Assembly (NCBI GenBank): GCA_043753505.1
Contig: JAYUXO010000274.1
Location: 1-48,853 of the forward strand
From: Comamonadaceae bacterium
Lineage (GTDB): Bacteria; Pseudomonadota; Gammaproteobacteria; Burkholderiales; Burkholderiaceae_C
Reading direction: 5' to 3'
DNA length: 48,853 nt
Part shown: positions 1,512 through 42,438 of the stretch, piece by piece
Position numbering within the stretch: position 1 is the first letter of the stretch
Layout of the letters: each line of letters opens with the position of its first letter
The notes under the pieces: model-generated
What the model saw: only the letters and a program-made list of their open reading frames with translations
Databases searched by the model: none
Told to the model about the DNA's origin: nothing
Made by a program: the position numbers and the translations under genes

Positions 1512-1568
1512 GCTCGAAATAAATTTACTAACTTTCGCTACTAAAAATATAGCGGCTTGAGCAATATC
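1512..1568. repeat. family B AT-rich bipartite element, copy B1 (reverse orientation)
   Basis: gctcgaaataaatttactaactttcgctactaaaaatatagcggcttgagcaatat aligns with the reverse complement of copy B5 (17246-17309). It is an AT-rich island in GC-rich DNA. Confidence 0.6.
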
Positions 1569-1616
1569 TGCGGGGGCAAATGCTCTTTTTATGCCTCGTT
1601 CGTCTATTTCGATTAC

Positions 1617-3047
1617 CTATTCCCGCGTCACTCGCACCAACTCTTCACGCGACGTAATGCCTTCGCGTACCAGCCGCTCGCCATCGTCGCGCATCAGGGT
1701 CATACCCGTCCCCAGTGCGGCGTGGCGGATGTCTGCTTCGGAGGTTTTGTTGTGAATTTGCGCGCGGATGGCTTCGTCGGTTACCAGCAATTCGAACACG
1801 CCAGTACGGCCCTGATAGCCAGTGTGTCCACAGTAACTGCAACCGGGTGCCGTTGAGCCATTCGGTGTGTGAACCACGCAGTGGGTGCACAGCTTGCGTA
1901 CCAGGCGCTGAGCCAACACGCCCAGCAAGGATGAGCTGAGCAAAAACGGCTCCACACCCATATCGGTCAGCCGCGTGACGGCGCTGGCGGCATCGTTGGT
2001 GTGCAGGGTGGCCAGCACGAGATGGCCGGTAAGAGACGCTTGAATGGCGATTTGTGCGGTTTCAAAGTCGCGAATCTCGCCGATCATGATCACGTCGGGG
2101 TCCTGGCGCAGGATGGCGCGCAGGGCTTTGGCAAAGGTCAGGTCAATCTTGGCATTAACCTGCGTTTGGCCGATGCCGGGCAGCTCGTATTCGATGGGGT
2201 CTTCGACCGTCATGATGTTGGCGCTGCCCGCGTCCAGACGGGAAAGCGCGGCATACAAGGTGGTGGTTTTGCCGGAGCCGGTGGGGCCGGTGACCAGAAT
2301 GATGCCGTGCGGCTGTGCAATCAGGTTCTGGATGCGGCGCAACACCTCGCCTTGCATGCCCACCGCTTCCAGATTGATTTTGCTTTCGCTTTTATCGAGC
2401 AAACGCAACACGGCGCGCTCGCCATGGGCACTGGGCAGGGTGCTCACGCGCACGTCCACCGCACGGGTGCCAATGCGCAGGGAGATGCGTCCGTCTTGCG
2501 GCAAGCGCTTCTCGGAAATGTCCAGCTCGGCCATGATTTTCAAGCGCGAAATCAGGGCGGCATGCAGCGCCCGGTTGGGTTGCACCACCTCGCGCAAGGT
2601 GCCGTCCACCCGAAAGCGCACCGAGCTGTGGCGCTCATAGGGCTCGATGTGAATGTCGCTGGCCCCGTCGCGCGCGGCCTGCGTGAGCAGGGCATTCAGC
2701 ATGCGGATGATGGGTGCGTCGTCGCTGGTTTCCAGCAGGTCTTCCACCGCGGGCAGCTCCTGCATCATGCGGGACAGGTCGGCGTCGTTTTGCACCTCAC
2801 TGACCACGGTGGCGGCGCTGGACTCGCCTTGTGCGTAAGCGGCGCTGATGCGTTGGGCTAGCGCCGGTGCGTCCATCTGCGCCACGGCGCGCACCGGGAA
2901 TTTGCGCATCACCTCGCTCCAGGCACTTTGAAAGCTGGCCACATTCGAGGAAGGCGCATGCCACAAGGTCAGGTCGTGGCCGTCGTCTTCCAGCAGCAGC
3001 TGGCTGGTGCGGGCAAAGGCATAGGGCAAAGGGTAGCGGGTGGCCAT
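1617..3047 (-). CDS. gspE: type II secretion ATPase GspE
   Basis: 476 aa. Walker [10 protein letters not shown], Asp/His boxes, C-terminal CxxC...CxxC zinc motif. The N-terminus PLPYAFAR is typical of GspE. Confidence 0.95.
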
Positions 3048-3056
3048 GGCGTTTGC

Positions 3057-5153
3057 TTACCTGGCCGGTTTGGCAGCGTCAGTCGGCGACACCGGGCGAC
3101 TGGGCAGCGCAGGTGCTTCATTGATCGGCATCATCACGCTGGAGGCGGGTTGCTGGCCCAACTGCTGGTTGCGGATCAGGTCGTAGCGGTCCATAGACAG
3201 CGTCTCGCTGGCATTGGCATCGCGCATCACGACAGGCCGCAAGAAAATCATCAAATTGGTTTTCTTGCGCGAGCGGATTTCGGTTTTGAACAGGTTGCCA
3301 ATGAGTGGCACATCGCCAATACCGGGAATCTTTTCCTGCTGGTCGGAATACTCGTCTTGCAGCAAACCACCCAGCACGATGATGGCACCGTCGTCCACCA
3401 GCACATTGCTCTCAATCGAGCGCTTGGCGGTAATCAAGCCCGCAGCCGAGTTGGACTGCACGCTGGAAACTTCCTGAAAAATCTGCATTTTGATGGTGCC
3501 GTTTTCGCTGATTTGCGGCTTCACACGCAAAGTGATGCCTACGTCTTTGCGCTCTACGGTCTGAAACGGGTTCACCGTGCCGCCGCCGCCGCTGCCCGTG
3601 TTGGTGAACGAGCCGGTGACGAACGGCACGTTCTGGCCGATCACGATTTTGGCTTCTTCGTTGTCCAGCGTGAGCAAATTGGGCGTGGACAAAATGTTGC
3701 CGTCGCCCTTGGTTTGCAGAAACCGGGCCAGAAATCCCAGCACGTAAATGCCGTTGGTTTTGTTGACCAGGCCGATATTGCCGCCGGTTGAAAAACTGGC
3801 GGCACCGCTGGCCGCGCCGGTGGCCAGGCTGATGATGTTTTGCCCGCCAATGCTGAAATTGGTACCCAGTACGCCCAGCACGCTGTCGCCGTTTTTGCCC
3901 GATACGCCCTGCCATTGAATGCCGAATTCGGCGGCCTTGTCGGCGTTCACCTCGGCAATCAGGCTTTCCACAAATACCTGGGCGCGCCGGGCGTCCAGTT
4001 TTTCAATCACCGCGCGCAACTGGCGGTATTGCGGCTCGGCGGCGGTGATGATGAGGGAGTTGGTGGCAGGGTCTGCCTGAATTTGCCCACCGGTAGAAGG
4101 TGCCGCAGACGCAGCAATCGGTGCAGTGGCCGGGGCGCCCGCGCCAAGCGCCGTTACCGGCGCGGCAGCTGTGGGAGCAGCGGCGGCAGTGTTGCCGCCC
4201 TGCAAAGCGGCGCGCAAGGTCACAGCCAGCTTGGTGGCGTCGGCGTTTTTCAAATACACCACGTAAATATTACCCAGCGGACTTTGCGAAATCGGCTGAT
4301 CCAGCTTTTCCACCAATGAGCGCACCAGGGCCATGCGGGCCGGGTTAGCGGCGCGGGCGATCAGGGTGTTGCTGCGCGACTCGGCAATCACCGTGGTGCG
4401 AAAGCTGGCATCGCCGCCCGGTGCGCCACCGCCGCCGGATTCGGCCAGGCGCGAAACCAGCGGGGCCAGGTCGCTGGCCAACGCGTGCTTCAAGGGAATG
4501 ATTTCCAGGTCGGTGGCGTTGGACACATCCAGCGCCGAGATGATGCGGCCCAGGCGTGCCAAGTTATCGGCGTAGTCGGTGATGATGAGCGAGTTGTTGC
4601 CGGGGTTGACGTTGATGGTGTTGTTGGGCGCGATCAAGGGCCGCAGGATGGGCACCAAATTGTTGGGGTTCTCGTAGTTCAGACGGAATATTTGCGTGAC
4701 GATGGCACTGTTGGCCGCCTGGACCGGGCCGGTGCCCGCCACCGACACGGTGCCGCCTTGCAGCTTGGCGTCGGCCTCGGGCACCACCTTGAGCAAGCCA
4801 CCCGAATCCACCACCGTGAAGCCAGACAACCGTAAGGTCGCTAAAAACTGGTTGTAAGCCGCGGCGGGTGTCACGGAATTTTCAGTGATCAGCGTGATGG
4901 TGCCCTTGACGCGCGGATCGACCACGATGTTGCGCCCGGTGGTGATTGCCATGGTGCGGGCCACGGCCTCAATGTCGGCGTTGGTGAAGTTCAGCGTGAC
5001 GGGCGCGTTGCGGTTGCCAGTGGCCACCGCCAGTGGCGTGGCTGCGGGCGCAGCCTGGGCCAACACTTGGGCATGAAAAAGGCTTCCAGCCCAAGCAAAT
5101 GCTGCTGAAGCAGCTATTAAATTAGTAGTGAATCTGGGGGGCAAGCGATACAT
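3057..5153 (-). CDS. gspD: type II secretion secretin GspD
   Basis: 698 aa. N0-N3 domains plus a C-terminal secretin domain (VLGGLL...IPGIGDVPLIGNLF). Start ATG lies 3 nt after the gspN stop. Confidence 0.95.
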   Translation of the reverse strand: MYRLPPRFTTNLIAASAAFAWAGSLFHAQVLAQAAPAATPLAVATGNRNAPVTLNFTNADIEAVARTMAITTGRNIVVDPRVKGTITLITENSVTPAAAYNQFLATLRLSGFTVVDSGGLLKVVPEADAKLQGGTVSVAGTGPVQAANSAIVTQIFRLNYENPNNLVPILRPLIAPNNTINVNPGNNSLIITDYADNLARLGRIISALDVSNATDLEIIPLKHALASDLAPLVSRLAESGGGGAPGGDASFRTTVIAESRSNTLIARAANPARMALVRSLVEKLDQPISQSPLGNIYVVYLKNADATKLAVTLRAALQGGNTAAAAPTAAAPVTALGAGAPATAPIAASAAPSTGGQIQADPATNSLIITAAEPQYRQLRAVIEKLDARRAQVFVESLIAEVNADKAAEFGIQWQGVSGKNGDSVLGVLGTNFSIGGQNIISLATGAASGAASFSTGGNIGLVNKTNGIYVLGFLARFLQTKGDGNILSTPNLLTLDNEEAKIVIGQNVPFVTGSFTNTGSGGGGTVNPFQTVERKDVGITLRVKPQISENGTIKMQIFQEVSSVQSNSAAGLITAKRSIESNVLVDDGAIIVLGGLLQDEYSDQQEKIPGIGDVPLIGNLFKTEIRSRKKTNLMIFLRPVVMRDANASETLSMDRYDLIRNQQLGQQPASSVMMPINEAPALPSRPVSPTDAAKPAR
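5072..5128. repeat. family B element, copy B2, inside the gspD signal-peptide codons
   Basis: The reverse complement reads AATAGCTGCTTCAGCAGCATTTGCTTGGGCTGGAAGCC, so both conserved blocks are present. It encodes NLIAASAAFAWAGSLF. Confidence 0.7.
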
Positions 5154-5156
5154 GGT

Positions 5157-6023
5157 TCAACCAATCGTGATGATGGAGCGGGGCCCGTTGCGGCGCCCGA
5201 TGATGTTAAGCAGGTTGGACAAGGCCGCTTCGTGCTCGGGCGCAGCGCTGGCCGAGCCCGAAAACCTCAGGCGGGAGCCCACCCATTGACCGGTTCCCAC
5301 TAATTGCAGACTGCCTTGCAAGGTGGACAGTTCCACGGTGGGCACATCGCCCCCCCGAATGGTCAAACGATAGCTGCCCATGGGCCGCAGGGTCGACAGA
5401 CGTGACGACAGGCTGGCCGCCTCCATTTGGGCAAGTCCCGCTATCAACATGCGCCCGGCCTGCCACTGCACATTCAAGGCTTGCGTGCGCAACTGCAGCT
5501 GCCCCTGCGGTTGCACCGTGTTCCAGGGCGTGCCCAGGCCAGCCAGCAGCGTGGCGGGCACGGTGCTGGTGTTGTCTTGTAACGTCACGCTCACGCCTTG
5601 CAAACTCAGTTGAATTTGCGCTTCCAGCGGCTGTGCGGTGCAGCAATCGGACCAAGCAACCAACCGCGCGCCGGTCAAGCCGGGTAGCAGCTTCCACTGC
5701 ACCCGGGTGGGGAGGCTGGCGGCGTCTTTACTGCCCAGCCCGCCTGTGAGCATGAGGCGGGCGGAGCCGCGCCAAACGGTGCCGCGCGCATCATTCAGCT
5801 GAAATGTGCCACCTGTGTTCTGGCTCAGCTGATGGGTCAACCAGCGTGCCGGCGCAAACGCGAGCAACGCCAGCGCCAGGCCAATCAGCAGACCCGCCAG
5901 CGCCCAGCCCCACGGCACACCGGCACGGTTGCGCACGGGGGCTGCGGACGCGCGCCCCCCCAGCAAAGCGCGGCTGGCCAGGCCTGAGGCTGGGCGCTGG
6001 GCGGAAGAAGCGAAAAGAGCCAA
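5157..6023 (-). CDS. gspN: type II secretion protein GspN
   Basis: Position between gspM and gspD. One N-terminal TM segment, then ARGTVWRGSA, typical of T2SS-N. The start is uncertain (the ORF-track start is TTG). Confidence 0.75.
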   Translation of the reverse strand: MALFASSAQRPASGLASRALLGGRASAAPVRNRAGVPWGWALAGLLIGLALALLAFAPARWLTHQLSQNTGGTFQLNDARGTVWRGSARLMLTGGLGSKDAASLPTRVQWKLLPGLTGARLVAWSDCCTAQPLEAQIQLSLQGVSVTLQDNTSTVPATLLAGLGTPWNTVQPQGQLQLRTQALNVQWQAGRMLIAGLAQMEAASLSSRLSTLRPMGSYRLTIRGGDVPTVELSTLQGSLQLVGTGQWVGSRLRFSGSASAAPEHEAALSNLLNIIGRRNGPRSIITIG

Positions 6024-6050
6024 TGTGCGGGCCGATGCAGGTTGCGCGGT

Positions 6051-6545
6051 TTAACGCGGCGGTAGAGAAAGCACGATGGAACCATCCCACGTGCCCGCAG
6101 CATTGCGGGTCAGGCGTGCCTCGCTGGGCAACACCCGCGCATTGCTGCGAGCTTGGGCCAGCCATTGAGCCAAAGTGTTTGGCGCTACGCCATTCAGCGT
6201 GACCGTGGTTCTGTCTCCGGCCGTGGCCACACGGGCGCTGGCACCCAGGCGTTCGCGCACCGACGCTTCCAGTGCGCGGCTGGCGTCGTCATACGACAGC
6301 TTGGGTTGTGCCTGTAAGGTTTGGGCTTGTGCTTGCAGTCGGCGCATGGTGTCCAGCTGCCGCTCCAGACTGGAAGTTTGGGTTTCGGCGGTTTTTAGCG
6401 TGGCACGGGCTGGTGCCACGCCGACCCACCAAAGCAAGGCGAGACCCACCACAGCGCAAGCACCGGCAGTCAGTGACTTTTCGCGCGGTGCCATTGAAGC
6501 CCAGCGTGCAGACAAGCCCGCCAGCAGCTCGGAACGGTTACTCAT
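6051..6545 (-). CDS. gspM: type II secretion protein GspM
   Basis: 164 aa. Single TM segment followed by a coiled region. Overlaps the gspL stop by 4 nt. Confidence 0.8.
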   Translation of the reverse strand: MSNRSELLAGLSARWASMAPREKSLTAGACAVVGLALLWWVGVAPARATLKTAETQTSSLERQLDTMRRLQAQAQTLQAQPKLSYDDASRALEASVRERLGASARVATAGDRTTVTLNGVAPNTLAQWLAQARSNARVLPSEARLTRNAAGTWDGSIVLSLPPR

Positions 6546-7786
6546 GGTGCGCCCTCCTGACGCACAACCAGGCTGTCGCCCTGGCGCTGCAGCGCGTAGC
6601 CTTTGGCGCGCAGTTGCGTGGTGATAGCGGCCATTTCGGCGTCATTCAAGCTGAGGCCTTTCATACGGGCTTCGTTCGCTACAAATTCAATAGCTGTCAC
6701 AGCTTTGCCTTCCGGGGCTACAGTACCAAAAGCACTCAAAACGGCCTCCAAATCGCGGCCCGACGTGCTACCGGTTGCCTGGCGCAGCAGCGCCACTTCA
6801 CGCTCCATTTGCACCGGCGCATCCAGAATCACCTTCACATTGGGAAAGGTTTGGCTCAAGGTGGCACGTATGGCTTGTTCTTTGGCTTGCAGCGCACGCC
6901 TCTCACCAAAGGCCCAGGCGTTCAGACCTAACACATGTGCCAGCACCAAAACTGCCACACCCCAGCGTGCAGGCCGCCAGCGCAGGGAAAAAAACAACTC
7001 TCGCCAGCTACCCGTGAACCGTTTCATCGCACGGGCACGGCCCGAACTGGCCAGGTCAAACTGAGCCAAATCCCAGTCACCCTGAGCGGCCTGCGCCAGC
7101 CGCTGGGCGCTTTGTTGCAAGGTCACGCGGCGGTGCAATCGCTGCTCGGCCAGCGCTGCCACAGCGGGTTCAGCCAGCAAAGGCGTGTCGTCTGCCAGCG
7201 GAGGCAGACCCGGCACTGATTGGGACATTAAATTGGTGTTGTGGCCTTCGGCTGCCAAAGGCAGCACAGTGACCCCCTGCTCGCTGCACACCACGAGTTG
7301 CGCATCGGCTGATTCGTCACCAGAGGCCAGCGCATGCCAGCGAACGGGCTGACCAGGCGCGAATTCCGGCACGATGCGGTTGGCCGGGCGCTGCGCCGCC
7401 TCCAGCGTTGCCAATGCCTGACGCAGCCAAGCCCGATTACAGGCTGCTACCCATACCGGCTCGCCAGCACGCGCAGCTGGCTGCAGGGCAAAGTGCAGGT
7501 TGTCGGGTTCATCCAGCAGACGGTCTTCGAGCAAACCATCCAGCACGGCGCGCAAACGCGGTGAGCTGGCGGTGGTGCCCTTGGGCAGCTCCACCTGGTG
7601 CCACGACAGCACCCGCACGGGCACAACAGCCACCACTTCGGCACCTGGCCCACTGGGCTTGGGCAGCAAGGCGGATAGGGCATTGGCATGGTGAACCGCA
7701 GTGCCATCGGCGCTGACCTGCACGAAGGCATATTCAGTGGCCGGGCCGCTTTCGGCCGTCGGCAGGACCACGATCAGGCTGCTCAT
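6542..7786 (-). CDS. gspL: type II secretion protein GspL
   Basis: Cytoplasmic actin-like domain, TM segment (WGVAVLVLAHVLGLNAWAF) and periplasmic domain. ATG at 7786 (MSSLIVVLP) is preferred and ATG at 7807 is possible. The longer ORF-track start would overlap gspK. Confidence 0.8.
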   Translation of the reverse strand: MSSLIVVLPTAESGPATEYAFVQVSADGTAVHHANALSALLPKPSGPGAEVVAVVPVRVLSWHQVELPKGTTASSPRLRAVLDGLLEDRLLDEPDNLHFALQPAARAGEPVWVAACNRAWLRQALATLEAAQRPANRIVPEFAPGQPVRWHALASGDESADAQLVVCSEQGVTVLPLAAEGHNTNLMSQSVPGLPPLADDTPLLAEPAVAALAEQRLHRRVTLQQSAQRLAQAAQGDWDLAQFDLASSGRARAMKRFTGSWRELFFSLRWRPARWGVAVLVLAHVLGLNAWAFGERRALQAKEQAIRATLSQTFPNVKVILDAPVQMEREVALLRQATGSTSGRDLEAVLSAFGTVAPEGKAVTAIEFVANEARMKGLSLNDAEMAAITTQLRAKGYALQRQGDSLVVRQEGAP

Positions 7787-7862
7787 AGGGTGGTTGGATA
7801 TTGGCATTGCACGGCAACGATTGTAGAGAGCGCTTGCGGCGCAAGGGTGCACACCGGCAGCT

Positions 7863-8837
7863 TCATTGCCGTCCCGGCACACGGCCCATAGCACTCTCGG
7901 GGGTCAGGGCTTCAGGTGAATCGACCAGGCGACGACGGCTCAGGGTGGTGACTTTCAGGCCGTCACGCTGCAGCACAGAACTCTCCATCACCATGTTTTG
8001 CTCCAGCCGAAGCCGCCCCTGCACCTCAAAAAACCGGCTGGCCACGCTGTGTTGACCTTCGACAAACTGGCCGGAGAATTCGGGCACCAACTTGCCCGCG
8101 TCGGCCAGCGTCGAAAAATGCGTACGCCCGCGCGCCACAACGATACGTTGGGCACCCGACATGTCCAGCCCGGGTACGCTGGCGTAAAGCGCTTCGGCGC
8201 TGGCTGTGTTCAGGTTCAGGCCCGTTCGCACTGGAAGCACCGTCACAAATGGTTTTAGCGCCGCGACGCTGGTCTCGCTCAAACCCAGCCACGTCAGTTG
8301 CTCCACCCGCTGCGGCACCAGATAGGCTTGCGATTTCGACAGGTTTTCCGGGCTGTTATCCAACGCAAATCGCAGGTTCTCCGCCATCTGACCCAGCTCA
8401 ACAGGAGGCAGGTTGAGTTGTTCAAAGAGCTTGGTAAAAGCTTTCAATGCGGGCTCAGACACCTTGTTGGCCTCTACCAGGTTCGTGACGTTCAGGCGCG
8501 ATTGCAAATCGAAAATCTGGCCCGACAAAAAAGCATCTTCACTATCAGACGTGTTGCTGCGATCCGCCGCCAGGAAGGTGGACATACGGGCCTCTTCCAG
8601 CGGCAACGCCCAGGGCTCCGACAGGTGGTCGGCACCCCCCGAGCGCGCGTCTTCGCGCAGAATGAGCCGCGCCCAGTCCAACGCGCCGGTGAGTACCCAA
8701 CCCGACTGCACGCGCGAGCGCTCTGCGGCTTCCACGGCCACGCTGCGCCATTGCTGCCACAGCGCGGCCGCCGCCAGGCTGGCCACCAGCGTGACGGTGA
8801 GCATGGCCAGCAACAGCGCTGCGCCACGCTGGGGCAT
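7863..8837 (-). CDS. gspK: type II secretion minor pseudopilin GspK
   Basis: MPQRGAALLLAMLTVTLVASLAAA N-terminus and a GspK-type body. ATG at 8837 lies at the inner end of repeat C1. The ORF is open upstream to ATG 8972. Confidence 0.85.
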   Translation of the reverse strand: MPQRGAALLLAMLTVTLVASLAAAALWQQWRSVAVEAAERSRVQSGWVLTGALDWARLILREDARSGGADHLSEPWALPLEEARMSTFLAADRSNTSDSEDAFLSGQIFDLQSRLNVTNLVEANKVSEPALKAFTKLFEQLNLPPVELGQMAENLRFALDNSPENLSKSQAYLVPQRVEQLTWLGLSETSVAALKPFVTVLPVRTGLNLNTASAEALYASVPGLDMSGAQRIVVARGRTHFSTLADAGKLVPEFSGQFVEGQHSVASRFFEVQGRLRLEQNMVMESSVLQRDGLKVTTLSRRRLVDSPEALTPESAMGRVPGRQ

Positions 8838-8974
8838 GACGCGCTTCGTGCATGACCTCGCTGCGCCTGAATGACTGATGACGCAGGCACCCGGTACCAG
8901 CACGTCATGGCGTGTAACGCCGTCATACACGCGCAGCGGTGCCATGGCGCGCCACGCCGTCACCCGCCTCATGA
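8836..8974. repeat. family C ATGAC/GTCAT-rich palindromic element, copy C1 (gspJ/gspK junction)
   Basis: About 135 bp, alignable with 9701-9831 and 10620-10760. It runs from the gspJ stop (TCATGA at 8969-8974) to the gspK ATG. Confidence 0.75.
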
Positions 8975-9766
8975 CTTACCCCCGCCCAGCGTGGGCCTGG
9001 CCCAGTCACGGGTAATGTTGCCGCCAAAGGTACCCGCTGGCAAACGCAGCACCAACCGCACACCATCGGGAATCACCACGGCGGGCGGTGGGGGGGCGCT
9101 GATAACCGGCGCATTGCCGCCAATCACAAATCCCGATGGCGGGGGCGGTTGTTCGGTGACTACGCTGCTCGATTGCGGGTTGGTCCAAGCGTCAGCGCGA
9201 AAGTAAAACAGCTGCCACTCGGTCACCGGCAGCACGGCCACCTCCAGGCGCTTGGACTCTTCATTCGGATTTTGCGCCCACAACCCAGCGCGCAGCCAGG
9301 ATTCTTCAAGCTGGCTTCGGTTAGCAATTGGAGGCGACTGCCAACGCAGCCATTGACCCGCACCGTCAGTGCTGCTGCCATTGTTGTTTCGCAGTGTCCA
9401 TGCCACCACGCGCAGGCCGCTGTCAATACCCAGGGCCGAATCAGCGGCCGTGCGAATCATGCGAAACACCTGGCCGTTCCAGTCCAGTGTGGTGGCTGCC
9501 CCATAGCTGGGCATTTGAACCAGCGCGTCCAGGTCGGTGCCCCATTGCGCCAATCCAGCCTGCAACGTAAGCACATCGTCAGCCCGGGCCTGCGTTTGCG
9601 TTTGTGCGCGACTCATGCCGTCCAGACCACGCCAGCTCATGACCGCCAGGATGGCCATGACGGATAGTGCCACCAGCACTTCGATGAGCGTGAAGCCTCC
9701 TATGACGCGCTTTGCGCATGATTTCGCTGCCCGTCGATGATGGATGAGTGGCACGGCTTGTCTCAT
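8969..9766 (-). CDS. gspJ: type II secretion minor pseudopilin GspJ
   Basis: Prepilin motif IGG/FTLIEVLVAL. The nearest in-frame starts are GTG 9751 and ATG 9766, both inside repeat C2. ATG 9829 overlaps the gspI stop (ATGA). Confidence 0.8.
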   Translation of the reverse strand: MRQAVPLIHHRRAAKSCAKRVIGGFTLIEVLVALSVMAILAVMSWRGLDGMSRAQTQTQARADDVLTLQAGLAQWGTDLDALVQMPSYGAATTLDWNGQVFRMIRTAADSALGIDSGLRVVAWTLRNNNGSSTDGAGQWLRWQSPPIANRSQLEESWLRAGLWAQNPNEESKRLEVAVLPVTEWQLFYFRADAWTNPQSSSVVTEQPPPPSGFVIGGNAPVISAPPPPAVVIPDGVRLVLRLPAGTFGGNITRDWARPTLGGGKS

Positions 9767-9831
9767 CAAGTCATGGCGTGCAGCGCCGTCATACACGTGC
9801 AGCGAGGTCATTGCGCGCCGCGCAGTCATCA
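9701..9831. repeat. family C element, copy C2 (gspI/gspJ junction)
   Basis: Termini are atgactgcgc... and ...gcgcgtcat on the gene strand, an inverted repeat. The core cgtgtatgacggcg.t.cacgccatgac is shared with C1. Confidence 0.75.
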
Positions 9832-10206
9832 GTGCCGCCCCACCACAGTGCTCAGCCGCAAAATCGGCGACGCGCCATCCAGCACTTGTGCGTCAACCCG
9901 ACGAAAGTTGGGGTTGGGCGTGGGCTGCACAGACACCGCCACCGTGAGGTTGCGACCGGCCTGCTCACATGCAACGGTACTGTCGCCCACACCCGGCATT
10001 TGTCTGGACAGCCGGGTTTTGACAAGTTCGTTTTCAGCACACACGTGCGCGAACAGCAAGTCCGATTGGCGCTGTGCGTTACGCGTTAAGGCCGATGTGG
10101 CTTGCAACCCCGCCGTCAAAGCCACTGCGACGATTCCCAGAGCCACCAGGATCTCGATAAGCGTGAAGCCGCGGTGGGTTCCACGCGTAACTTGTAGGCC
10201 TGTCAT
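9829..10206 (-). CDS. gspI: type II secretion minor pseudopilin GspI
   Basis: 125 aa. Leader MTGLQVTRGTHRG then FTLIEILVAL. ATGA overlap with the gspH stop. Confidence 0.85.
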   Translation of the reverse strand: MTGLQVTRGTHRGFTLIEILVALGIVAVALTAGLQATSALTRNAQRQSDLLFAHVCAENELVKTRLSRQMPGVGDSTVACEQAGRNLTVAVSVQPTPNPNFRRVDAQVLDGASPILRLSTVVGRH

Positions 10207-10721
10207 TGCTCTGGCGTGACCACCGAGAAAGGCCGCAGTCCGTCTGTGGCAATGCGCAGGGTATGAGGTGGATTGCCAGCGCTGAGCAACAAGCTCTGCG
10301 GGCCAATGATGGGCTCAGGCCCGAGTGTCAAGGTGGTGCTTCCCACCACCTGCGTGCCCAGTGAAAGCCAACGCGTAGGCAGAGCATCATTGTGCAAACC
10401 CACGAATGCAAAACCTTCTTCAGTGGCGACCCATCGCACCGGCACGCCGATGGCCCGTGACTGCAAGCGCGCCGCCTCCAGCAGCGCGGTCAAACGTTGG
10501 GCTTCGCGCTCCACCTGCGTGTGAGCTGGGTCGCGCATCGCAAAACTTACACCGGCTGACCCGATGGCAATGATAGTGATGACCACCAGCAACTCCAGCA
10601 GGGTGAAGCCCCTGGATGGAATGACGCGATTCGCGCATGACTTCGCAGCGCGTCGATGACTGATGGCCAAAGTTCTCCGGTCATGACGCGCAGCGTTGTC
10701 ATCTACGCAAATCGGGGTCAT
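10203..10721 (-). CDS. gspH: type II secretion minor pseudopilin GspH
   Basis: Prepilin motif SRG/FTLLELLVV. The in-frame starts available (ATG 10721, or a TTG near 10670) both lie inside repeat C3. Confidence 0.75.
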   Translation of the reverse strand: MTPICVDDNAARHDRRTLAISHRRAAKSCANRVIPSRGFTLLELLVVITIIAIGSAGVSFAMRDPAHTQVEREAQRLTALLEAARLQSRAIGVPVRWVATEEGFAFVGLHNDALPTRWLSLGTQVVGSTTLTLGPEPIIGPQSLLLSAGNPPHTLRIATDGLRPFSVVTPEQ

Positions 10722-10760
10722 CGAGTCCGAGCGCCGGTCATCGCGGCAGCAGGCGTCATT
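10620..10760. repeat. family C element, copy C3 (gspG/gspH junction)
   Basis: On the gene strand there are four ATGAC at about 17-20 nt spacing, a central GTCATGAC, then three more GTCAT. Termini are aatgacgc... and ...gcgtcatt. Confidence 0.75.
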
Positions 10761-11223
10761 GCCAGCTACCCACATCGGCATTTTTGCCCTCGCCGCCTGC
10801 CTGACCGTCAGCACCGAAAGACATCACATCAATTTCACCCTTCACACCTGGATTCAAGTACTGGTACGTGCGGCCCCAGGGATCATTGGGCAGCTTTTCC
10901 ACATAGGGCTTCCAGTTAGGTGGTACCGGTGAGGTGGCGGGCTTGGTCAGCAAAGCCTGAAGGCCCTGCTCGGATGTGGGGTAGCGCTGGTTATCCAGCT
11001 TGTACAGCTTCAAGGCCTGCACCACATTGTTGATGTCGGTTTTAGCGGCAGTCACACGCGCATCGTCTGCCCGATCCAACACGTTGGGCACGATTAACGC
11101 CGCCAGCACGCCGATGATGACCAGCACCACCATCAACTCAATCAAGGTAAAGCCCCGGGAGATTCTGGAACTTTTTGAAGCCAGAAAATCCGCAGGTACG
11201 AAAGGGATTAGGGTGTATTTCAT
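10756..11223 (-). CDS. gspG: type II secretion major pseudopilin GspG
   Basis: 155 aa. SRG/FTLIELMVVLVIIGVLAALIVP and the GspG body (DPWGRTYQY, GADGQAGGEG). Confidence 0.93.
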   Translation of the reverse strand: MKYTLIPFVPADFLASKSSRISRGFTLIELMVVLVIIGVLAALIVPNVLDRADDARVTAAKTDINNVVQALKLYKLDNQRYPTSEQGLQALLTKPATSPVPPNWKPYVEKLPNDPWGRTYQYLNPGVKGEIDVMSFGADGQAGGEGKNADVGSWQ

Positions 11224-11270
11224 GGCACTTCGAGACAGGTTGGGGCAATCCGTTCAATGATAATCGCCCT

Positions 11271-11792
11271 ATGCTGACCCTCTCAGACCCCGCGCGTTCC
11301 AAAGTATTGCTCAACGCAACCACGTTGTTGATCTGGCTGGCGGCTGCCGCCAGCGCCGCGTACTGGGCCCTGCGCCTGACCACCGCGACGGGCGTGCCCA
11401 CGGCGGCGCCAGTGGTGCTGCCCGCTCCTGTAGTGGCCGACACCAACGCCGTAGCTCGGCTGCTGGGCTGGGTATCCAACGCAAACCCCTCTGTCGTGGC
11501 GCTCCCGCCACCGCCCTTACTGGCCACACGATTGATTTTGGTCGGAGTGGTGGCGGACCGCAACACCCGCTCGGGCGCTGCCCTGATTGCCATCGACGGC
11601 AAGCCTCCCAGACCCTACCGGGTGGGGGCCAAGCTGGAAGAAGGTGTGTTCTTGCAGTCGGTTTACGGCCGAAGTGCGACGGTGGGCACTGCTGTTAACG
11701 GAACAGCGACCGTCAAGCTGGAAATGCCACCTGTGGCTGGTGCCAGTGCGCCGCCGACCTCTGCCGTGCCGAATGCAGCGCCACGGCCTTAA
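11271..11792 (+). CDS. gspC: type II secretion protein GspC-like
   Basis: Divergent from gspG. TM segment LLIWLAAAASAAYWAL, then an HR-type segment LILVGVVADRNTRSGAALIAIDGKPPRPYRVGAKLEEGVFLQSV. Starts at ATG 11271. No PDZ domain is evident. Confidence 0.6.
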   Translation: MLTLSDPARSKVLLNATTLLIWLAAAASAAYWALRLTTATGVPTAAPVVLPAPVVADTNAVARLLGWVSNANPSVVALPPPPLLATRLILVGVVADRNTRSGAALIAIDGKPPRPYRVGAKLEEGVFLQSVYGRSATVGTAVNGTATVKLEMPPVAGASAPPTSAVPNAAPRP

Positions 11793-11835
11793 GGAACCTC
11801 TGCAAAAAGCGTTTGGCATCACACAAATGCTATAA

Positions 11836-11893
11836 TTTATATAGCTGTTTGAGCAATACCCATAAGGGCTGGAAGCCAAAAACGCTTCAAAAC
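11836..11893. repeat. family B element, copy B3
   Basis: TATATAGCTGTTTGAGCAATACCCATAAGGGCTGGAAGCCAAAAACGCTTC, between the convergent 3' ends of gspC and ilvA. Confidence 0.7.
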
Positions 11894-11913
11894 CCTCACT
11901 GATCGGGCCCAAA

Positions 11914-13464
11914 TCAGCCTGCAGCCCTCAAAAACAGTCGATACGCCGGATTAAGCGTCTCTTCCACGCACGGATAGCCCAGGCTGGCCAAAAATTGCGC
12001 GAACACCGCCTGGTCTTGCTGGGGAACCTGCACCCCCACCAGAATGCGCCCGTAATCCGCGCCCTGGTTACGGTAATGAAACAGGCTGATGTTCCAGTTG
12101 GGTTGCATGGCGGCCAGAAATTTCATCAAGGCACCAGGCCGCTCAGGAAACACAAAGCGCAGCAGCCGCTCGTCCTGCGCCAGCGCAGAGTGCCCGCCAA
12201 CCATATGACGAATATGCTCCTTGGCCAGCTCGTCGTGCGTCAGATCGATGGCATCAAACCCGTGCTTGTTAAAGCTCGCTGCGATTTTGGTGCTCTCGCC
12301 TTTGCCCAACGTAGTAAGTCCCACAAACACATGCGCTTTGGCGGCGTCGTGGATGCGGTAGTTGAATTCGGTCACGTTGCGAGGCCCGCCTTTAAGTGAG
12401 GCAATCAGCTCGCAAAACCGCTTGAAACTGCCGCGCGCCTCCGGGATAGTGACAGCAAACAAGGCCTCGCGCTCCTCGCCCACCTCGGCCCGCTCAGCCA
12501 CAAAGCGCAAACGGTCGAAATTCATGTTGGCACCGCACAAAATTGCTGCGTAGGTTTCTCCCCTGGTCTTGTGCAACGCCACATATTTTTTGATGGCCGC
12601 CACCGCCATGGCCCCCGATGGCTCAACGATGCTACGCGTCTCGGTGAACACGTCTTTGATGGCCGCGCACACCGCATCGGTGTCCACCGTGATGTAGCCA
12701 TCCACCAGCGCACGGCTGATGCGAAATGTTTCAGCACCCACCTGTTTCACCGCAGTTCCATCAGCAAACAAGCCCACATCGCCCAGCGTGACGCGCCTCT
12801 TCGCTGCGACCGATTGCATCATGGCGTTGGAGTCATCCATCTGTACGCCAATCACCTGGATCTCAGGTCGAACCGCCTTGATGTAATTGGCTACGCCGGA
12901 GATCAGGCCACCGCCGCCGATTGCAACGAATACAGCGTGCAGCGGCCCCTGGTGCTGGCGCAAAATTTCCATCGCAATCGTGCCCTGTCCGGCAATTACA
13001 TCGGGGTCGTCAAACGGGTGAACAAAGGTCAGGCCCTGATTTTCTTGAAGCGCGAGTGCGTGGGTATGGGCGTCTGAATAGCTATCGCCAAACAGCACGA
13101 CTTCGCCGCCCAACGCGCGAACTGCATCAACCTTGATGTTGGGCGTGGTCGTGGGCATCACGATCACGGACCGTGCGCCAAGACGGGCAGACGCAAGCGC
13201 AACACCCTGCGCATGGTTACCCGCCGAAGCGCAAATAACACCTTTTTTTAGCTGCTGTGGCGTCAGCTGCACAATCTTGTTGTAAGCACCGCGGAGCTTG
13301 AACGTGCGCACAGACTGCTGGTCTTCGCGCTTGAGAAGTACTGTGTTGTGCAGACGCTTGCTCAAGGTTTTGGCAGTCTCCAGCGCACTTTCAACTGCCA
13401 CGTCATAAACCCGTGCAGTGAGGATTTTTTTTAGGTAATCAGCTGGTTTTAGGGGTTTGCTCAT
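11914..13464 (-). CDS. ilvA: biosynthetic threonine ammonia-lyase (threonine dehydratase)
   Basis: 516 aa from ATG 13464. PLP site FKLRGAYN, GGGGL loop and two C-terminal ACT-like regulatory repeats. Confidence 0.93.
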   Translation of the reverse strand: MSKPLKPADYLKKILTARVYDVAVESALETAKTLSKRLHNTVLLKREDQQSVRTFKLRGAYNKIVQLTPQQLKKGVICASAGNHAQGVALASARLGARSVIVMPTTTPNIKVDAVRALGGEVVLFGDSYSDAHTHALALQENQGLTFVHPFDDPDVIAGQGTIAMEILRQHQGPLHAVFVAIGGGGLISGVANYIKAVRPEIQVIGVQMDDSNAMMQSVAAKRRVTLGDVGLFADGTAVKQVGAETFRISRALVDGYITVDTDAVCAAIKDVFTETRSIVEPSGAMAVAAIKKYVALHKTRGETYAAILCGANMNFDRLRFVAERAEVGEEREALFAVTIPEARGSFKRFCELIASLKGGPRNVTEFNYRIHDAAKAHVFVGLTTLGKGESTKIAASFNKHGFDAIDLTHDELAKEHIRHMVGGHSALAQDERLLRFVFPERPGALMKFLAAMQPNWNISLFHYRNQGADYGRILVGVQVPQQDQAVFAQFLASLGYPCVEETLNPAYRLFLRAAG

Positions 13465-13515
13465 GCGCCAGGATGATAGGTGGGCTCCAACGCACCCCAA
13501 AAACTGCGCCTCAAG

Positions 13516-13546
13516 AAAAAAACCCCGAGTTTCGCAACCCGGGGTT
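13516..13546 (-). terminator. terminator-like hairpin plus T7 inside the ilvA 5' leader
   Basis: The minus strand reads aaccccgggttgcgaaactcggggttttttt, 52 nt upstream of the ilvA ATG. No minus-strand gene lies upstream for it to terminate. Confidence 0.5.
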
Positions 13547-14199: not shown

Positions 14200-14226
14200 A
14201 ACACCCGATGCGGATTGCAATTTGCC

Positions 14227-14847: not shown

Positions 14848-14915
14848 GGTAAATACTCGTTAGTCGGTATCGGCATTGCAGTGTACGCATGAGACCGCTC
14901 TCCAGCAGAGCCAAC

Positions 14916-26222: not shown

Positions 26223-26234
26223 TCAACTGACCTT

Positions 26235-33897: not shown

Positions 33898-35621
33898 GCG
33901 CCGACCTGAACTGGGCTTTCCGCCCCCGCTGCGACGCCACACCCGCCTGGACGGCCCTGACCCAACAGTTTGAAAACTCGGGCCGCGCCTTGCATCTGCG
34001 CACCGCGTTTGCCCAAGATCCGTCCCGCGTCGAGCACTTCAGCCAGCGCGCCCCGCACCTGTTTGCTGATCTGTCCAAAAATCTGATTGACGCGCCCACT
34101 GAGGCTTTGCTGCTCGACCTGGCCCGACAGTGCGGCGTCGAAACCTTGCGCGACGCGATGTTTGCGGGGCAAGCCATCAACACCACTGAACAGCGCGCCG
34201 TGATGCACTGGCTGCTGCGTTGCCCTCAAGCGGCGTTGGGGCACGATTTAGTGCCAAATCAACCACCAGCTCTTTTAGATACTGCTCAAGCAGCTATCAA
34301 AACAGGAGTGAATCAAGGTTTAGCCACGCAGCTGGAGCACGTCCATCACACGCTGGACGCCATGCTGGCCTATGCCATGCGCGTGCGTGCCAACCGCGCC
34401 ATCACCGATGTGGTGACCATTGGCATCGGCGGCTCCGACCTCGGTCCCCAAATGGCCGTGCGCGCGCTGGATGCCTACATCGACAACGGCCAACGCTTTC
34501 ATTTCGTCTCCAACGTTGACCCTCACGAGTTGGCCCGCACGCTGCGCCCGCTCCAGGCTGCCAGCACGCTGTTTCTTGTCGCCTCCAAAACCTTCACCAC
34601 CGCCGAAACCATGGCCAACGCAGAGGCGGCGCGTGACTGGTTCCTTTCCAACGGTGGGACGGACATCAACCAACACTTCGCCGCGCTCACCACCAACATC
34701 AGCGCGGCCCGGGACTTCGGCATCACCGCCTGCTTTGGCTTTTGGGACTGGGTGGGCGGCCGCTATTCGCTGTGGTCGGCCATTGGTTTGCCCATTGCCA
34801 TCGCCGTCGGTCCAGTGCATTTCAAAGCCATGCTGGCCGGCGCGCACGAGATGGACACGCACTTTCAAAACGCCCCGCTGGCGCGCAACCTGCCCGTGCG
34901 TCTGGCGCTCATCGACGTCTGGTATCGCAACTTCCACCACTTCACCAGCCGCAGCATCGCCCCCTACCACAGCCTGCTGTCCCGCCTGCCCGCTTACCTG
35001 CAACAGCTGGAGATGGAAAGCAATGGCAAGCGGGTGGACGTGCAAGGCCGCGCCCTGCCCTACGCCACGGCCCCCGTGCTCTGGGGCGAGCCCGGCACCA
35101 ACGGCCAGCATGCCTATTTTCAGATGCTGCATCAGGGCACTGACGTGGTGCCCGTTGAGATCGTTTTGGCCGCTCAGCCCAATCAGAATATGCTGGAGCA
35201 GCTATCAAATAGTGAGCATCAACATATCCAGTTGTGTGCCAACGCACTGGCCCAGGCCCAGGCCCTGATGCTGGGTAAGGCCGATGAAGGAGGCCACAAA
35301 CACTTCCCCGGCAACCGCCCCAGCACGGTGCTGCTGCTGGACGCGCTGTCGCCGGCCAGCCTGGGTGCGCTGATTGCGCTGCAGGAACACCGCGTGTTTG
35401 TCAGCGGTGCGATTTGGGGCATCAACAGTTTTGACCAATGGGGCGTGGAGCTGGGCAAGGTACTGGCGCAAAACCTGGGTGCGCGTTTGCAGGCTCCAGC
35501 AGGTCCTGTCGATGTTGCGGGCCTGGACGGCTCAACGGCGGCCCTTTTAGCGCGTCTGCGCACTACACTGGCCGCGCCCGACGCATCCAGCCCAGGGCAC
35601 AGCAGTCAAACAATCGTCTAA
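33894..35621 (+). CDS. pgi: glucose-6-phosphate isomerase
   Basis: [32 protein letters not shown] signatures. At 575 aa it is longer than I would expect for this family. Confidence 0.92.
34246..34324. repeat. family B element, copy B8, in frame inside pgi
   Basis: gatttagtgccaaatcaaccaccagctcttttagatactgctcaagcagctatcaaaacaggagtgaatcaagg. The reverse complement carries both conserved blocks. It encodes [25 protein letters not shown]. Confidence 0.7.
35157..35213. repeat. family B element, copy B9, in frame inside pgi (different frame from B8)
   Basis: The reverse complement reads TTTGATAGCTGCTCCAGCATATTCTGATTGGGCTGAGCGGCCAAAACG. It encodes part of [17 protein letters not shown]. Confidence 0.55.
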
Positions 35622-38258: not shown

Positions 38259-38295
38259 ATTGGTGAGCGGGGGAAGAATACATACGGCAAGCTGT

Positions 38296-38362
38296 TTCAG
38301 TGCCAAGCAAGCCTCCAGCCCTTTTCCAAACTGCTCAAGCAGCTATTTATTCAGTAGCATTT
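38296..38362. repeat. family B element, copy B10
   Basis: The reverse complement reads GAATAAATAGCTGCTTGAGCAGTTTGGAAAAGGGCTGGAGGCTTGCTTGGCAC. Confidence 0.7.
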
Positions 38363-40463: not shown

Positions 40464-40484
40464 GGCGGGTGGTGTCAGAGGTCA

Positions 40485-41294
40485 TCACGGAACGGGAACG
40501 ACAACAGGCGGGCGAGCGCGCCGGTGCAGGTGTCGCAGACGTTGCAAGTGGCGCAAATCGGCCAGCAGCGGCGGCAGGGCCAACACCATCAACACCGCTA
40601 CCAGCGGCAGCACGGAGACAAAGCCTGCGTACTTGAAACCGATGGCGCCGACAATCCCGCCCGTCAAAAAAGCCAGCAGCAACCCACTGAGCAACTTCAG
40701 TTTGCCGCGGTTGGCGCGCACCAGCATGTCGGCGCTCTGGTGACCACGATTCCAGTACAGCAGCTTACCCAGCTCAATGCCCAGGTCGGTGATCACGCCG
40801 GTCATGTGCGTGGTGCGGATTTGCGCGAACGACAGCTTGGAGACCACCGCGTTTTGCAGGCCCATGGTGTAGGCCAGCAGCAGCACGGTGAGCGGCACAG
40901 CAAAGGGCGTCTGGCGGTTCAAAGTGGCCCCCACCAGGCCGAATAACAACAGCAAGCTGGCCTCCAGCATCAGCGGCAAAGCAAATCCACTGCGCAGGTG
41001 GTGGCGCTGAGCCCAGTTGACCAACACTGCCGTGCTGGCGGCACCGCCCACAAAAAACAGCAACGCGCCAATCGCGCCCAGCACCAACGCCATGTTGCCC
41101 AGCACCAGGTTGTCGGCCACGATGGAGACAAAGCCGGTCATGTGTGAGGTGTACAGGCTGACCACCAGAAAGCCACCTGCATTGATGGCACCCGCGTTGA
41201 AAGCCAGCAGCACGCCGAGCAGCCGGTTGATGGACGGCGTCCGGTGGCGACCGGTAAGGTGGCGCAGGTAGCGCAGGCGATGCAAAGGTCGCAT
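40485..41294 (-). CDS. DUF1275 (YoaK-family) membrane protein
   Basis: GAINAGGFL...TSHMTG ... TTHMTGVITDLG repeat pattern of DUF1275. ATG 41294 is chosen to avoid overlap with glcE. Confidence 0.8.
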   Translation of the reverse strand: MRPLHRLRYLRHLTGRHRTPSINRLLGVLLAFNAGAINAGGFLVVSLYTSHMTGFVSIVADNLVLGNMALVLGAIGALLFFVGGAASTAVLVNWAQRHHLRSGFALPLMLEASLLLLFGLVGATLNRQTPFAVPLTVLLLAYTMGLQNAVVSKLSFAQIRTTHMTGVITDLGIELGKLLYWNRGHQSADMLVRANRGKLKLLSGLLLAFLTGGIVGAIGFKYAGFVSVLPLVAVLMVLALPPLLADLRHLQRLRHLHRRARPPVVVPVP

Positions 41295-41310
41295 GGTAAA
41301 GGCTGGCAAG

Positions 41311-42438
41311 CTACCAGGCAGCGGACAACCGTCCACGGTTGAAGATGCCAGCGGGGTCGAACTCTGCCTTCAGTTGCAGATGAATGCGCTGCAAAGGCGC
41401 CGAAACTGAATCAAATCGGCTGATAGACCTTGTAGATACTGCTGAACCAGCTATGAAAACGCTAGCATGTCCGCCTGCTTTCGTGGCTAATGTGCGCAGC
41501 CGTGTGGCTTGATCAGTGTCGCCCGCATCGACCCTCACCCAGCGCTGGCCGCCGTGCCATTCGATTAGCGGTGACTCGGGCAAGTCGAGCACCGGCGCGG
41601 TTTGCGGCACCGACAGGCGCCACAGGTTTTGGGCGTCACTGCGCGCGGTAAACCAGGGTAGTTGCTGGTCGCGGCACAGCATCCAGTCACTCGTGGTTTC
41701 AGCACTGTTCTGGTGTCGCCCACCCATTGTTTTACACGCGGACTCCACGGCGGCAACAGCGCCGCGCAAGCGCAGGTACAGGGTGTCCACGCCGTTGTCA
41801 CGCACCCAACAGCTGGCGTTCAGCGGCAGGGGCAGGCCGCCCCACTCGTGGAGTTTTTGCAGGGCTTGCAACTGGTTCATCTCAAACTTGAGCGTGGCTT
41901 CTGCGGGGGCCACTGGCATGACTTTCAGACTGATGTCGGTGAGCAAGCCCAAGGTGCCCAGCGAGCCGACCAGCATGCGGGAGACGTCGTAACCCGCGAC
42001 GTTTTTCATCACCTGGCCACCGAAAGTCAGGTGCTCGGCACGACCGTTGATGAGTTGGATGCCCAGCACGTAGTCACGCACGCTACCTGCGTTGGCGCGG
42101 GCGGGGCCTGAGAGGCCTGCGGCAACCATGCCGCCGACGGTGGCGGTGGCGGTGGCCCTTTTGGAATCGAAATGCGGTGGCTCAAACGGGAGGCACTGGC
42201 CACGCCCGGCCAGCGTGGACTCAAGTTCGGCCAGCGGGGTGCCAGCGCGGGCGGTGATGTACAACTCGCTGGGTTCGTAGGCGGTGATACCGGTGTAGGG
42301 GCGGGTGTCGAGCACGTCACCTATCGTGGTGGGCTCACCGTAAAAGTCTTTGCTGCCACCACCGCGAATGTGCAGCGGGGTTTTGCTGGCGGCAGCCGCC
42401 TGGATGCGGTCGATGAAGGATTGGAGTACGGCTTGCAT
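41311..42438 (-). CDS. glcE: glycolate oxidase FAD-binding subunit
   Basis: FAD_binding_4 core (GGGSKDFYG, KNVAGYDVSR) and tail LKAEFDPAGIFNRGRL. Confidence 0.88.
   Translation of the reverse strand: MQAVLQSFIDRIQAAAASKTPLHIRGGGSKDFYGEPTTIGDVLDTRPYTGITAYEPSELYITARAGTPLAELESTLAGRGQCLPFEPPHFDSKRATATATVGGMVAAGLSGPARANAGSVRDYVLGIQLINGRAEHLTFGGQVMKNVAGYDVSRMLVGSLGTLGLLTDISLKVMPVAPAEATLKFEMNQLQALQKLHEWGGLPLPLNASCWVRDNGVDTLYLRLRGAVAAVESACKTMGGRHQNSAETTSDWMLCRDQQLPWFTARSDAQNLWRLSVPQTAPVLDLPESPLIEWHGGQRWVRVDAGDTDQATRLRTLATKAGGHASVFIAGSAVSTRSISRFDSVSAPLQRIHLQLKAEFDPAGIFNRGRLSAAW
41403..41466. repeat. family B element, copy B11, in frame inside glcE
   Basis: The reverse complement reads GCTAGCGTTTTCATAGCTGGTTCAGCAGTATCTACAAGGTCTATCAGCCGATTTGATTC. 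It encodes ASVFIAGSAVSTRSISRFDS. Confidence 0.65.

Follow-up and report, generated by a model that had tools for sequence, protein, structure and literature searches.

A dispersed 68-bp AT-rich motif of Comamonadaceae genomes, probably a recognition sequence maintained in place

Results

The motif and its copies in the window

The stretch of DNA analysed in this work (hereafter the window) is the 48,853-nt contig JAYUXO010000274.1 of a Comamonadaceae bacterium, a segment of a betaproteobacterial chromosome. Pfam and Rfam searches identified in it a type II secretion operon, two operons for peptide ABC transporters, the genes ilvA and coq7, a gene for a porin, a toxin-antitoxin pair, the genes zwf, tal and pgi, the pair glcE and glcF, amtB, a comM-like gene and a tRNA-Phe gene. 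Dispersed between and inside these genes is an AT-rich sequence motif, the subject of this report, whose copies are listed in Table 1. An earlier note on the window had described it as a family of eleven bipartite mini-elements.

The window was searched with the 17-mer AATAGCTGYTTSAGCAG, allowing up to 3 mismatches. Ten matches were obtained, against a mean of 0.32 in dinucleotide shuffles (none of 100 shuffles reached 10). The profile that was built from 10 aligned copies returned the same 10 places when it was used to search the window. These are ten true family members among the eleven copies of the earlier note; the remaining one, a weak candidate at 14916-14965, scored 1.1 bits and has its blocks 19 nt apart instead of 9, and the degenerate copy inside gspL had gone unlisted. 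The two blocks of the bipartite layout described at that time are real, but the spacer between them is constant at 9 nt (it had been given as 9-10 nt) and the unit is larger, with a third block and a tail. The full unit measures about 68 bp and consists of GCTAYT, 9 nt, the core ATAGCTGCTTGAGCAG (block 1 of the earlier note), 9 nt, GGGCTRG (named block 3 below) and the tail GCC-ATTTGGC-TTAAAA, which follows the GGGCTRG block. The additional block GCTAYT lies 9 nt upstream of the core, the intervening 9 bases being AT-rich, and it is variable (GCTACT, GCTATT or GCTCCT). The blocks are about 18-19 bp apart.

The information profile of 214 copies showed sharp unit edges and flanks without information. 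The unit holds ~65-70 bits, of which ~40 bits reside in 25 strongly conserved positions, made up of the 16-bp core plus blocks of 4 and 5 bp. The copies form AT-rich islands in GC-rich DNA, as had been noted, with a GC content of 0.41 in the element and 0.59 in the flanks. Palindromy of the core is limited to the CTGC/GCAG pairing, that is, a 4-bp stem with a 4-nt loop. Analysis of mutual information in 218 copies resolved no subfamilies, apart from a tail variant with a T-tract or an A-tract. Copies are spaced along the window more evenly than random points (coefficient of variation 0.45, P = 0.015), which is suggestive only.

About half of the copies had been placed near gene ends and the rest in open reading frames (ORFs) that they do not break, and this distribution was confirmed. 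Five of the ten are intergenic, all of them at gene 3' ends or between co-directional genes according to Pfam-based gene calls. The other five lie in reading frames without introducing a stop, in the signal peptides of gspD and of a solute-binding protein, twice in pgi, and in glcE. The two signal peptides are motif-encoded (window 5068-5153 and 21428-21500) and read the motif in opposite orientations; the case of the solute-binding protein is common to a Rhodoferax relative (locus L087, 2044-2111).

Table 1. Motif copies and neighbouring features of the window (positions refer to the window; L-numbers denote loci or contigs used for comparison)
Feature	Position	Strand	Location	Score	Remarks
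Motif copy	1533-1590	+	intergenic; tRNA-Phe plus terminator on one side, gspE 3' end on the other	34.5 bits	most diverged of the ten; block 1 with 3 mismatches
Motif copy	5068-5134	-	sense, codons ~7-28 of the gspD secretin ORF (signal-peptide region)	54.1 bits	Secretin domains; TTGA changed to TTCA, which removes an in-frame stop; translation contains TTNLIAASAAFAWAGSLF
Motif copy, degenerate	6673-6741	+	antisense inside gspL	14.0 bits (E 0.0013)	CGCTACAAATTCAATAGCTGTCACAGC...GGGGCTACAG
Motif copy	11825-11894	+	intergenic, flanked by the 3' ends of ilvA and a gspC-like ORF	46.9 bits	
Motif copy	17234-17302	+	intergenic, DUF3047 gene / family-5 solute-binding protein gene	51.2 bits	perfect core; 0 mismatches in block 1
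Motif copy	21430-21495	-	antisense; second solute-binding protein, where it makes up the start codon region and the signal peptide	50.9 bits	encodes signal peptide MIFKQNMLAALVLTAGAAIISGAY; Rhodoferax relative motif-like at the same place (L087 2111-2044 aligns)
Motif copy	26161-26230	+	intergenic, flanked by the 3' ends of the genes for the ABC ATPase and a PIN toxin	51.0 bits	kept at the orthologous place in JAAFIW (L048 5247-5204)
Motif copy	34243-34314	-	antisense inside pgi, encodes 22 residues	55.6 bits	retained in the L025 ortholog
Motif copy	35162-35222	-	antisense inside pgi, different frame, encodes 19 residues	41.3 bits / 25.0 bits (two profile searches)	
Motif copy	38292-38362	-	intergenic, SH3-domain protein gene / HipA-like fragment	51.3 bits	perfect core; also in metagenome contig L195 (99.6% identical)
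Motif copy	41404-41468	-	sense, inside glcE, encodes HASVFIAGSAVSTRSISRFDSVS	46.9 bits	motif-like at the same place in Polaromonas and Variovorax
Rfam match RF02278	13515-13574	-	upstream end of the listed ilvA ORF	56 bits	hairpin 13546-13521
Terminator-like hairpin	16354-16379		between porin and DUF3047 genes		
PIN-toxin/MazE-type antitoxin pair	26235-26920	-	directly adjoins motif copy 26161-26230		
C-terminal extension of PGI	35562-35621		3' end of pgi		
ComM/YifB-like gene	46698-48377	+			Mg-chelatase-family ATPase

Distribution in related genomes

An exact pattern scan covering one genome per species gave at least 86 loci and, among the matches listed, nearly all of them came from two Comamonadaceae metagenome-assembled genomes, JAAFIW01 and JANOQJ01. 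When sequences of other genomes were compared as 8-kb pieces, 210 further profile matches were found in 653 kb from two other Comamonadaceae genomes. The window comes from a third genome of this relationship, which shares 78-90% identity with JAAFIW in syntenic regions. A scan of metagenomes provided at least 120 loci with at least 175 copies in 520 kb of contigs, and the contigs that are 99.4-99.6% identical to the window keep motif copies. Strains with 99% identity to the window are contained in the ENA assemblies OFCE01, OFCX01 and OFDP01. The family is genome-wide: no fewer than three related genomes of a freshwater group of Comamonadaceae, as well as metagenomes, carry about 1 copy per 3-5 kb, so that the dense dispersed family proposed from the window extends well beyond it. 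Its consensus remains an unnamed one: literature searches by sequence, and on repeats or uptake sequences of Comamonadaceae, returned no description of the motif. Orientation is balanced (109 copies on the + strand and 111 on the - strand) and shows no association with GC skew. Some 45 of 220 copies lie deep inside ORFs.

Absence of the hallmarks of transposition

The earlier note had likened the copies to Rickettsia palindromic elements (RPEs) and to repeats of the Correia or MITE type (miniature inverted-repeat transposable elements). The likeness holds in that the family is dense, dispersed and tolerated in frame, but the inverted repeats, duplications, empty sites and full insertions of such elements were not found. 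No target-site duplication was enriched over permuted flanks in 218 copies (k = 2-8, all boundary offsets). In the three copies tested for terminal inverted repeats, none joined the two ends and only short internal or copy-specific pairs were seen; the two ends of the consensus, ATTGCTATT... and ...GGCTTAAAAA, lack complementarity. The unit does contain an inverted hexamer, GCTATT/AATAGC, with a half-site-like arrangement 5 nt apart. Empty orthologous sites, which had been suggested as a check, were looked for in comparisons among three genomes that are 78-88% identical, and 11 of 11 sites were occupied. Neither a transposase domain, in agreement with the earlier reading, nor a RAYT gene was found in the window ORFs scanned and in the window, respectively.

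In-gene copies overlie native coding sequence

Insertion of a 68-bp unit is expected to add 22-23 residues to the protein. GlcE, with the window copy, showed a net change of 0 residues against every Comamonadaceae homolog. The three copies in PutA of JAAFIW account for net changes of 0 (site B), +3 and +11 residues against the solved Bradyrhizobium PutA (3HAZ); values of +6 for ProA, +11 for GlnRS and -6 for RarA were obtained in comparison with their PDB homologs, and the first and second copies in PGI of the window correspond to +17 and +7 residues against Rhodoferax PGI. Since these net changes are mostly far smaller than 22-23 residues, the in-gene copies are not 22-codon insertions.

Moreover, residues encoded by the in-gene copies are shared with homologs of other families, and are conserved also in homologs that do not carry the strict motif. 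The PutA sequence AIExIAARA is encoded by motif DNA (GCT ATT GAA AAA ATA GCT GCT CGA GCA), and SYxxWSK of the same protein is the reverse complement of the left block plus the start of the core (GCTCCA...ATAGCT). At PutA site B, relatives carry AGC GCA GAC AGC TAT where the focal lineage has TGC TCA AGC AGC TAT, with five changes towards the core. In GlcE, HATLFIA is written as CAT GCT ACx yTx TTy ATA GCx in the window, in JAAFIW, in an organism from a JGI metagenome (see below), in Polaromonas aquatica and in Variovorax terrae. The GC content at third codon positions (GC3) of V. terrae is 0.905, and ATA, CAT, GCT and CTT are strongly disfavoured codons there. The retention of disfavoured AT-rich codons for these residues indicates that the signal is at the DNA level, is old and overlays native coding sequence. 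The possibility that the copies are ancestral local sequence, which had been raised against a dispersed repeat, was borne out in part, as the distant relatives Rhodoferax, Polaromonas and Variovorax are motif-like at the same in-gene sites.

All six reading frames are used. The only frame that is open in the consensus, encoding FKPNxPxALVNTAQAAI..., was used by 24 copies; the frame with one stop was used by 11, in which TTGA is changed to TTCA or TCGA, and the remaining four frames by 15.

With regard to putA, this single gene holds three copies of the motif that differ in frame and orientation, and all of them are kept across four lineages (L030 / L067, from JANOQJ and JAAFIW; L091 10001-13117). 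A second repeat, GC-rich (CTCCCTCCCCCCCTGGGGAAGGGCGGGGGTGGGGGC, peptide SLPPWGRAGVGA), was observed in the same lineage. In contrast to the motif, this repeat is a true in-frame insertion that adds about 25 residues to GlcE of JAAFIW and P0243 (L215 565-678 for JAAFIW GlcE), and it is absent from GlcE of the window. Further copies of it are found in another locus (L076 3349-3385, 3680-3730 and 4049-4087).

Constraint at each site and dialects of the motif

Orthologous copies were compared leaving out the pairs in which both members had been chosen by exact core match. Differences were found at 14 of 175 core positions (8%) and at 74 of 301 positions in the rest of the unit (24.6%; p = 4e-6), the flanks differing by ~22%. 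The uncorrected estimate (5.5% versus 24.5%) is inflated by the choice of loci through the exact core match. In the pairs with no pattern-selected member, the core differed at 8 of 75 positions and the other positions at 29 of 129 (p = 0.04). Between orthologous copies, the rate of change at the 25 core positions is about one third of that in the spacers. Outside the core, unrelated copies differ at 55% of positions, orthologs at 22-25%. Spacers that are near-random among unrelated copies but conserved between orthologs indicate that there has been neither conversion of the whole unit nor recent descent from a master copy. As judged from these comparisons, the pattern is characteristic of recognition-motif instances rather than of copies by descent.

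Variation of the blocks was studied in small samples of other lineages. Homologs of PutA and GlcE, and not the motif, led to two contigs that belong to one organism of JGI sample 3300079094. In this organism a GCGGTAG-type block 3 replaces GGGCTRG in 9 of 11 copies while the core is unchanged, and the copies with this dialect include those at three orthologous sites, PutA B, PutA C and GlcE. This type of block 3 was present in none of the 175 metagenome copies listed, a set collected regardless of dialect. A metagenome scan aimed at the GCGGTAG dialect gave 0 matches in a collection that seems to be without the source sample of the dialect. Rhodoferax relatives keep GGGCTGG-AGGCC-ATTTGGC, but in their core ...CGCA replaces GAGCAG, and copies of this dialect stand at the same solute-binding protein, PGI and PutA sites. 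From lineage to lineage, blocks therefore appear to change independently of one another, and within one genome they appear to change together, the spacers staying site-specific. Concerted change of a block with site-specific spacers would be explained by an altered specificity of the reader protein, and not by re-insertion at the same sites.

RNA, promoter, Chi and BRE identities

Folding of single copies as RNA, on both strands, gave for the most part no improvement over shuffles (z from -2.4 to +1.35). Mutual information across the 218 copies showed variants of neighbouring columns and no paired columns, and no copy matched an Rfam family at the gathering threshold (for two copies, none at E <=1). 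On these grounds a structured RNA was rejected. A scan with the consensus promoter called none on any copy in 1-20000, and found only trivial, terminator-like hairpins of 5 bp, on one copy, as a result of which promoter or terminator was discarded as a general role. Block 3 often reads GCTGGTGG or GCTGGAGG, which are Chi-like. A polar signal of the Chi or KOPS type was rejected because the Chi-like positions vary and the orientation of the copies is independent of GC skew. The BRE repeat of Hot et al. 2011 is also found in Comamonadaceae (Polaromonas, Rhodoferax) and, like the motif, is mostly intergenic with some copies inside coding sequences; however, the published BRE is GC-rich, measures ~90 bp per unit (…GGCCGCGGGCCGCCCAAGGCAAAAAAGCCCCC…), often occurs as tandem units and has no sequence similarity to the motif, and this identity was rejected (PMC3110155).

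Neighbouring features

Other features were observed in the window (Table 1). The RF02278 match corresponds to the 'Betaproteobacteria toxic small RNA' of Rfam and includes a strong terminator-like hairpin. The hairpin between the porin and DUF3047 genes is a perfect 11-bp one, resembles a bidirectional terminator and is unrelated to the motif family. The PIN-toxin/MazE-type antitoxin pair is missing at the orthologous place in JAAFIW (L048 ~5087-5157). The C-terminal extension of the window PGI comprises ~20 residues; Rhodoferax homologs lack it and it is partial in sister genomes.

Discussion

The motif of the window originated in place, is constrained at each of its sites, differs as lineage dialects at orthologous sites, and shows neither polarity nor hallmarks of transposition. 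The copies are probably instances of a recognition motif, maintained in situ and recognised by a protein, and not mobile insertions. In-situ propagated recognition motifs are a kind already known; what is unusual here is the length, the modular dialects and the degree to which coding sequence has been rewritten.

How could such a motif be propagated? Existing DNA would be rewritten towards the motif by substitutions and small indels, both in intergenic regions and in tolerant codons. A sequence-specific force would hold about 25 core positions at each site, and the sequence preferred by this force would differ among lineages, giving rise to the dialects. A DNA receptor of the transformation machinery may prefer fragments that bear the motif, as occurs with the uptake signal sequences (USS) of Pasteurellaceae and the DNA uptake sequences (DUS) of Neisseriaceae. 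Better-matching alleles would be taken up and recombined more often, whereby the motif would accumulate by molecular drive and track changes in the receptor. We favour an uptake-like drive because it is the only well-understood process that combines in-place origin, sequence-specific maintenance and a preference varying among lineages. That the driver is DNA uptake of the USS/DUS kind, with the recogniser as one of its components, is put forward as a tentative proposal by analogy with those systems.

Of USS and DUS copies, 34-65% lie inside genes, with a preference for residues of low conservation (PMC2817400); their dialects, which the receptor matches, are family-wide (PMC3630211), and AT-rich stretches flank a strict core (PMC3458573). 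The Comamonadaceae motif resembles them in the hundreds of copies per genome, with equal orientations, no replication polarity and strong over-representation, and also in the strict core with AT-rich flanking stretches of lower information. It likewise has intergenic and in-gene copies that leave protein length unchanged and are placed where proteins tolerate them, it has arisen in place by substitution, including the choice of codons and residues (as seen in the PutA and GlcE codon alignments), and it is conserved at orthologous sites with lineage dialects (GCGGTAG versus GGGCTRG; CGCA versus GAGCAG). On the other hand, known uptake sequences have cores of 9-12 bp, measure ~30 bp at most and occur about once per kb, whereas the motif has a core of 16 bp plus two blocks, ~68 bp in all, is sparser, is far more biased to intergenic DNA and shows a net gain of sequence at some of its sites.

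Several points weigh against uptake as the driver. The motif has five times the length of any known uptake sequence, and its 68 bp and ~65-70 bits are hard to build by graded drive alone; its density of ~1 per 3-5 kb is below the ~1 per kb of USS/DUS. To our knowledge, neither natural competence nor sequence-biased uptake has been described for Comamonadaceae. The constraint estimate comes from only 7 usable orthologous pairs, and the evidence for dialects from 44 kb of one organism. In addition, there is net gain at several sites (+17 in PGI, +11 to +20 at PutA site A), and at PGI site 1 and PutA site A the full unit is present in the focal lineage where relatives have only its centre; some templated addition of sequence may have taken place. 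Regarding the comM-like gene of the window, ComM aids recombination during natural transformation of other bacteria, but since the gene is widespread, its presence alone is not evidence for DNA uptake.

The in-situ origin, the constraint and the dialects would also be expected if the copies were binding sites of an intracellular chromosomal protein (nucleoid-associated, related to topology or marking domain boundaries), spaced along the chromosome and selected by the host. A footprint of 68 bp that is AT-rich and offers three or four blocks for contact, at intervals of about 18-19 bp, would suit a multimeric or DNA-wrapping protein. The fairly even spacing in the window, the preference for intergenic places at gene 3' ends and the half-site-like inverted hexamer point in the same direction. 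Nevertheless, the maintenance of ~25 exact positions at hundreds of sites requires an appreciable fitness effect per site, and a concerted change of dialect is easier under drive than under host selection acting site by site. No candidate protein was identified and we know of no architectural protein with so long and strict a motif. We consider this explanation rather unlikely.

A third explanation is an old selfish family of the RPE or MITE type, or templated short-patch overwriting, with the copies later trimmed by compensating deletions and partly domesticated or homogenised by conversion. Known families of short repeats share several features with the motif. RPEs are also short in-frame repeats located in unrelated housekeeping genes, conserved across species and without obvious transposon ends, with one open consensus frame and a helix-like peptide (PMC10969869); however, they are real insertions of 100-150 bp that add a segment of peptide, whereas several copies of the motif add nothing. 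Correia/NEMIS and other MITEs are small, non-autonomous-looking AT-rich units dispersed between genes, but they have terminal inverted repeats, target-site duplications and presence/absence polymorphism, none of which was found for the motif. HIP1 of cyanobacteria (GCGATCGC) is an 8-bp palindrome that occurs at ~1 per 0.3-1 kb and whose function is unsettled. It has spread, like the motif, by in-place substitution, including coding regions through the choice of codons, but the motif is long, asymmetric and composite. REP and REPIN sequences are short, very abundant, species-specific, vertically inherited, long-persisting and mostly situated at gene 3' ends, in which they are similar to the motif. 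REPs are, however, extragenic imperfect palindromes of 20-40 nt with a GTAG or CGTC tag (PMC3733652), and the motif is 68 bp long, occurs also in genes and has a stem of 4 bp only, no conserved tag and no covarying hairpin.

A selfish origin would account for the discrete, sharp-edged unit that forms an AT-rich island in GC-rich DNA, for the net gains of 6-17 residues at several sites and for the full-length units found where relatives have only the centre. The use of frames tracks the stops of the consensus, with 24 copies in the frame that is open, 11 in the frame with one stop and fewer elsewhere, as an insertion filter would give, and RPEs are likewise in frame and conserved across species. 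It is difficult to reconcile with this origin that the copies have no inverted ends, target duplications or empty sites and that the window has no transposase. There is no net gain at GlcE, PutA site B and RarA, where native residues are kept at conserved spacing; the spacers are near-random between copies and conserved between orthologs, and the per-site constraint falls on the core alone. The true insertion-type repeat of the same lineage looks different, being GC-rich and lengthening JAAFIW GlcE. For these reasons a selfish family appears improbable.

Finally, an RNA-level or transcription signal carried by the repeat (terminator, processing site, small RNA or portable promoter) is very improbable: many copies lie just 3' of genes, the core could pair as a short stem-loop and the reverse strand reads TTGTAA-N16-TATnAA in the column counts, but the folding, covariation, Rfam and promoter results described above stand against it, and in-gene copies occur in both orientations.

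Returning to uptake-like drive, sequence-biased DNA uptake is known to us only from Pasteurellaceae and Neisseriaceae. Comamonadaceae might conceivably be a third family with uptake sequences, although this is doubtful; they would then have a long modular signal of ~68 bp whose blocks change independently and whose drive would be strong enough to rewrite codons, signal peptides and surface loops in core enzymes. If the uptake reading were true, sequence-biased uptake would extend to a large environmental family, and an information-rich modular signal would be available for finding the receptor and for studying the co-evolution of signal and receptor. Cultured strains of Rhodoferax, Polaromonas and Variovorax exist, which makes the idea directly testable.

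Whatever the driver is, a repeat with the looks of a MITE or an RPE can turn out to be a recognition motif that has been written into genes already present. In genomes with a GC3 of up to 0.9, rare AT-rich codons specify native residues of GlcE, PutA, ProA and RarA. For repeat annotation, this means that an in-frame repeat is not always an insertion. It also bears on anomalies of codon usage and on AT-rich islands, and shows DNA-level forces shaping protein sequence. In a broader sense, if true, the motif would stand for a class of long recognition motifs in genomes whose spread occurs through in-place overwriting and not through transposition.

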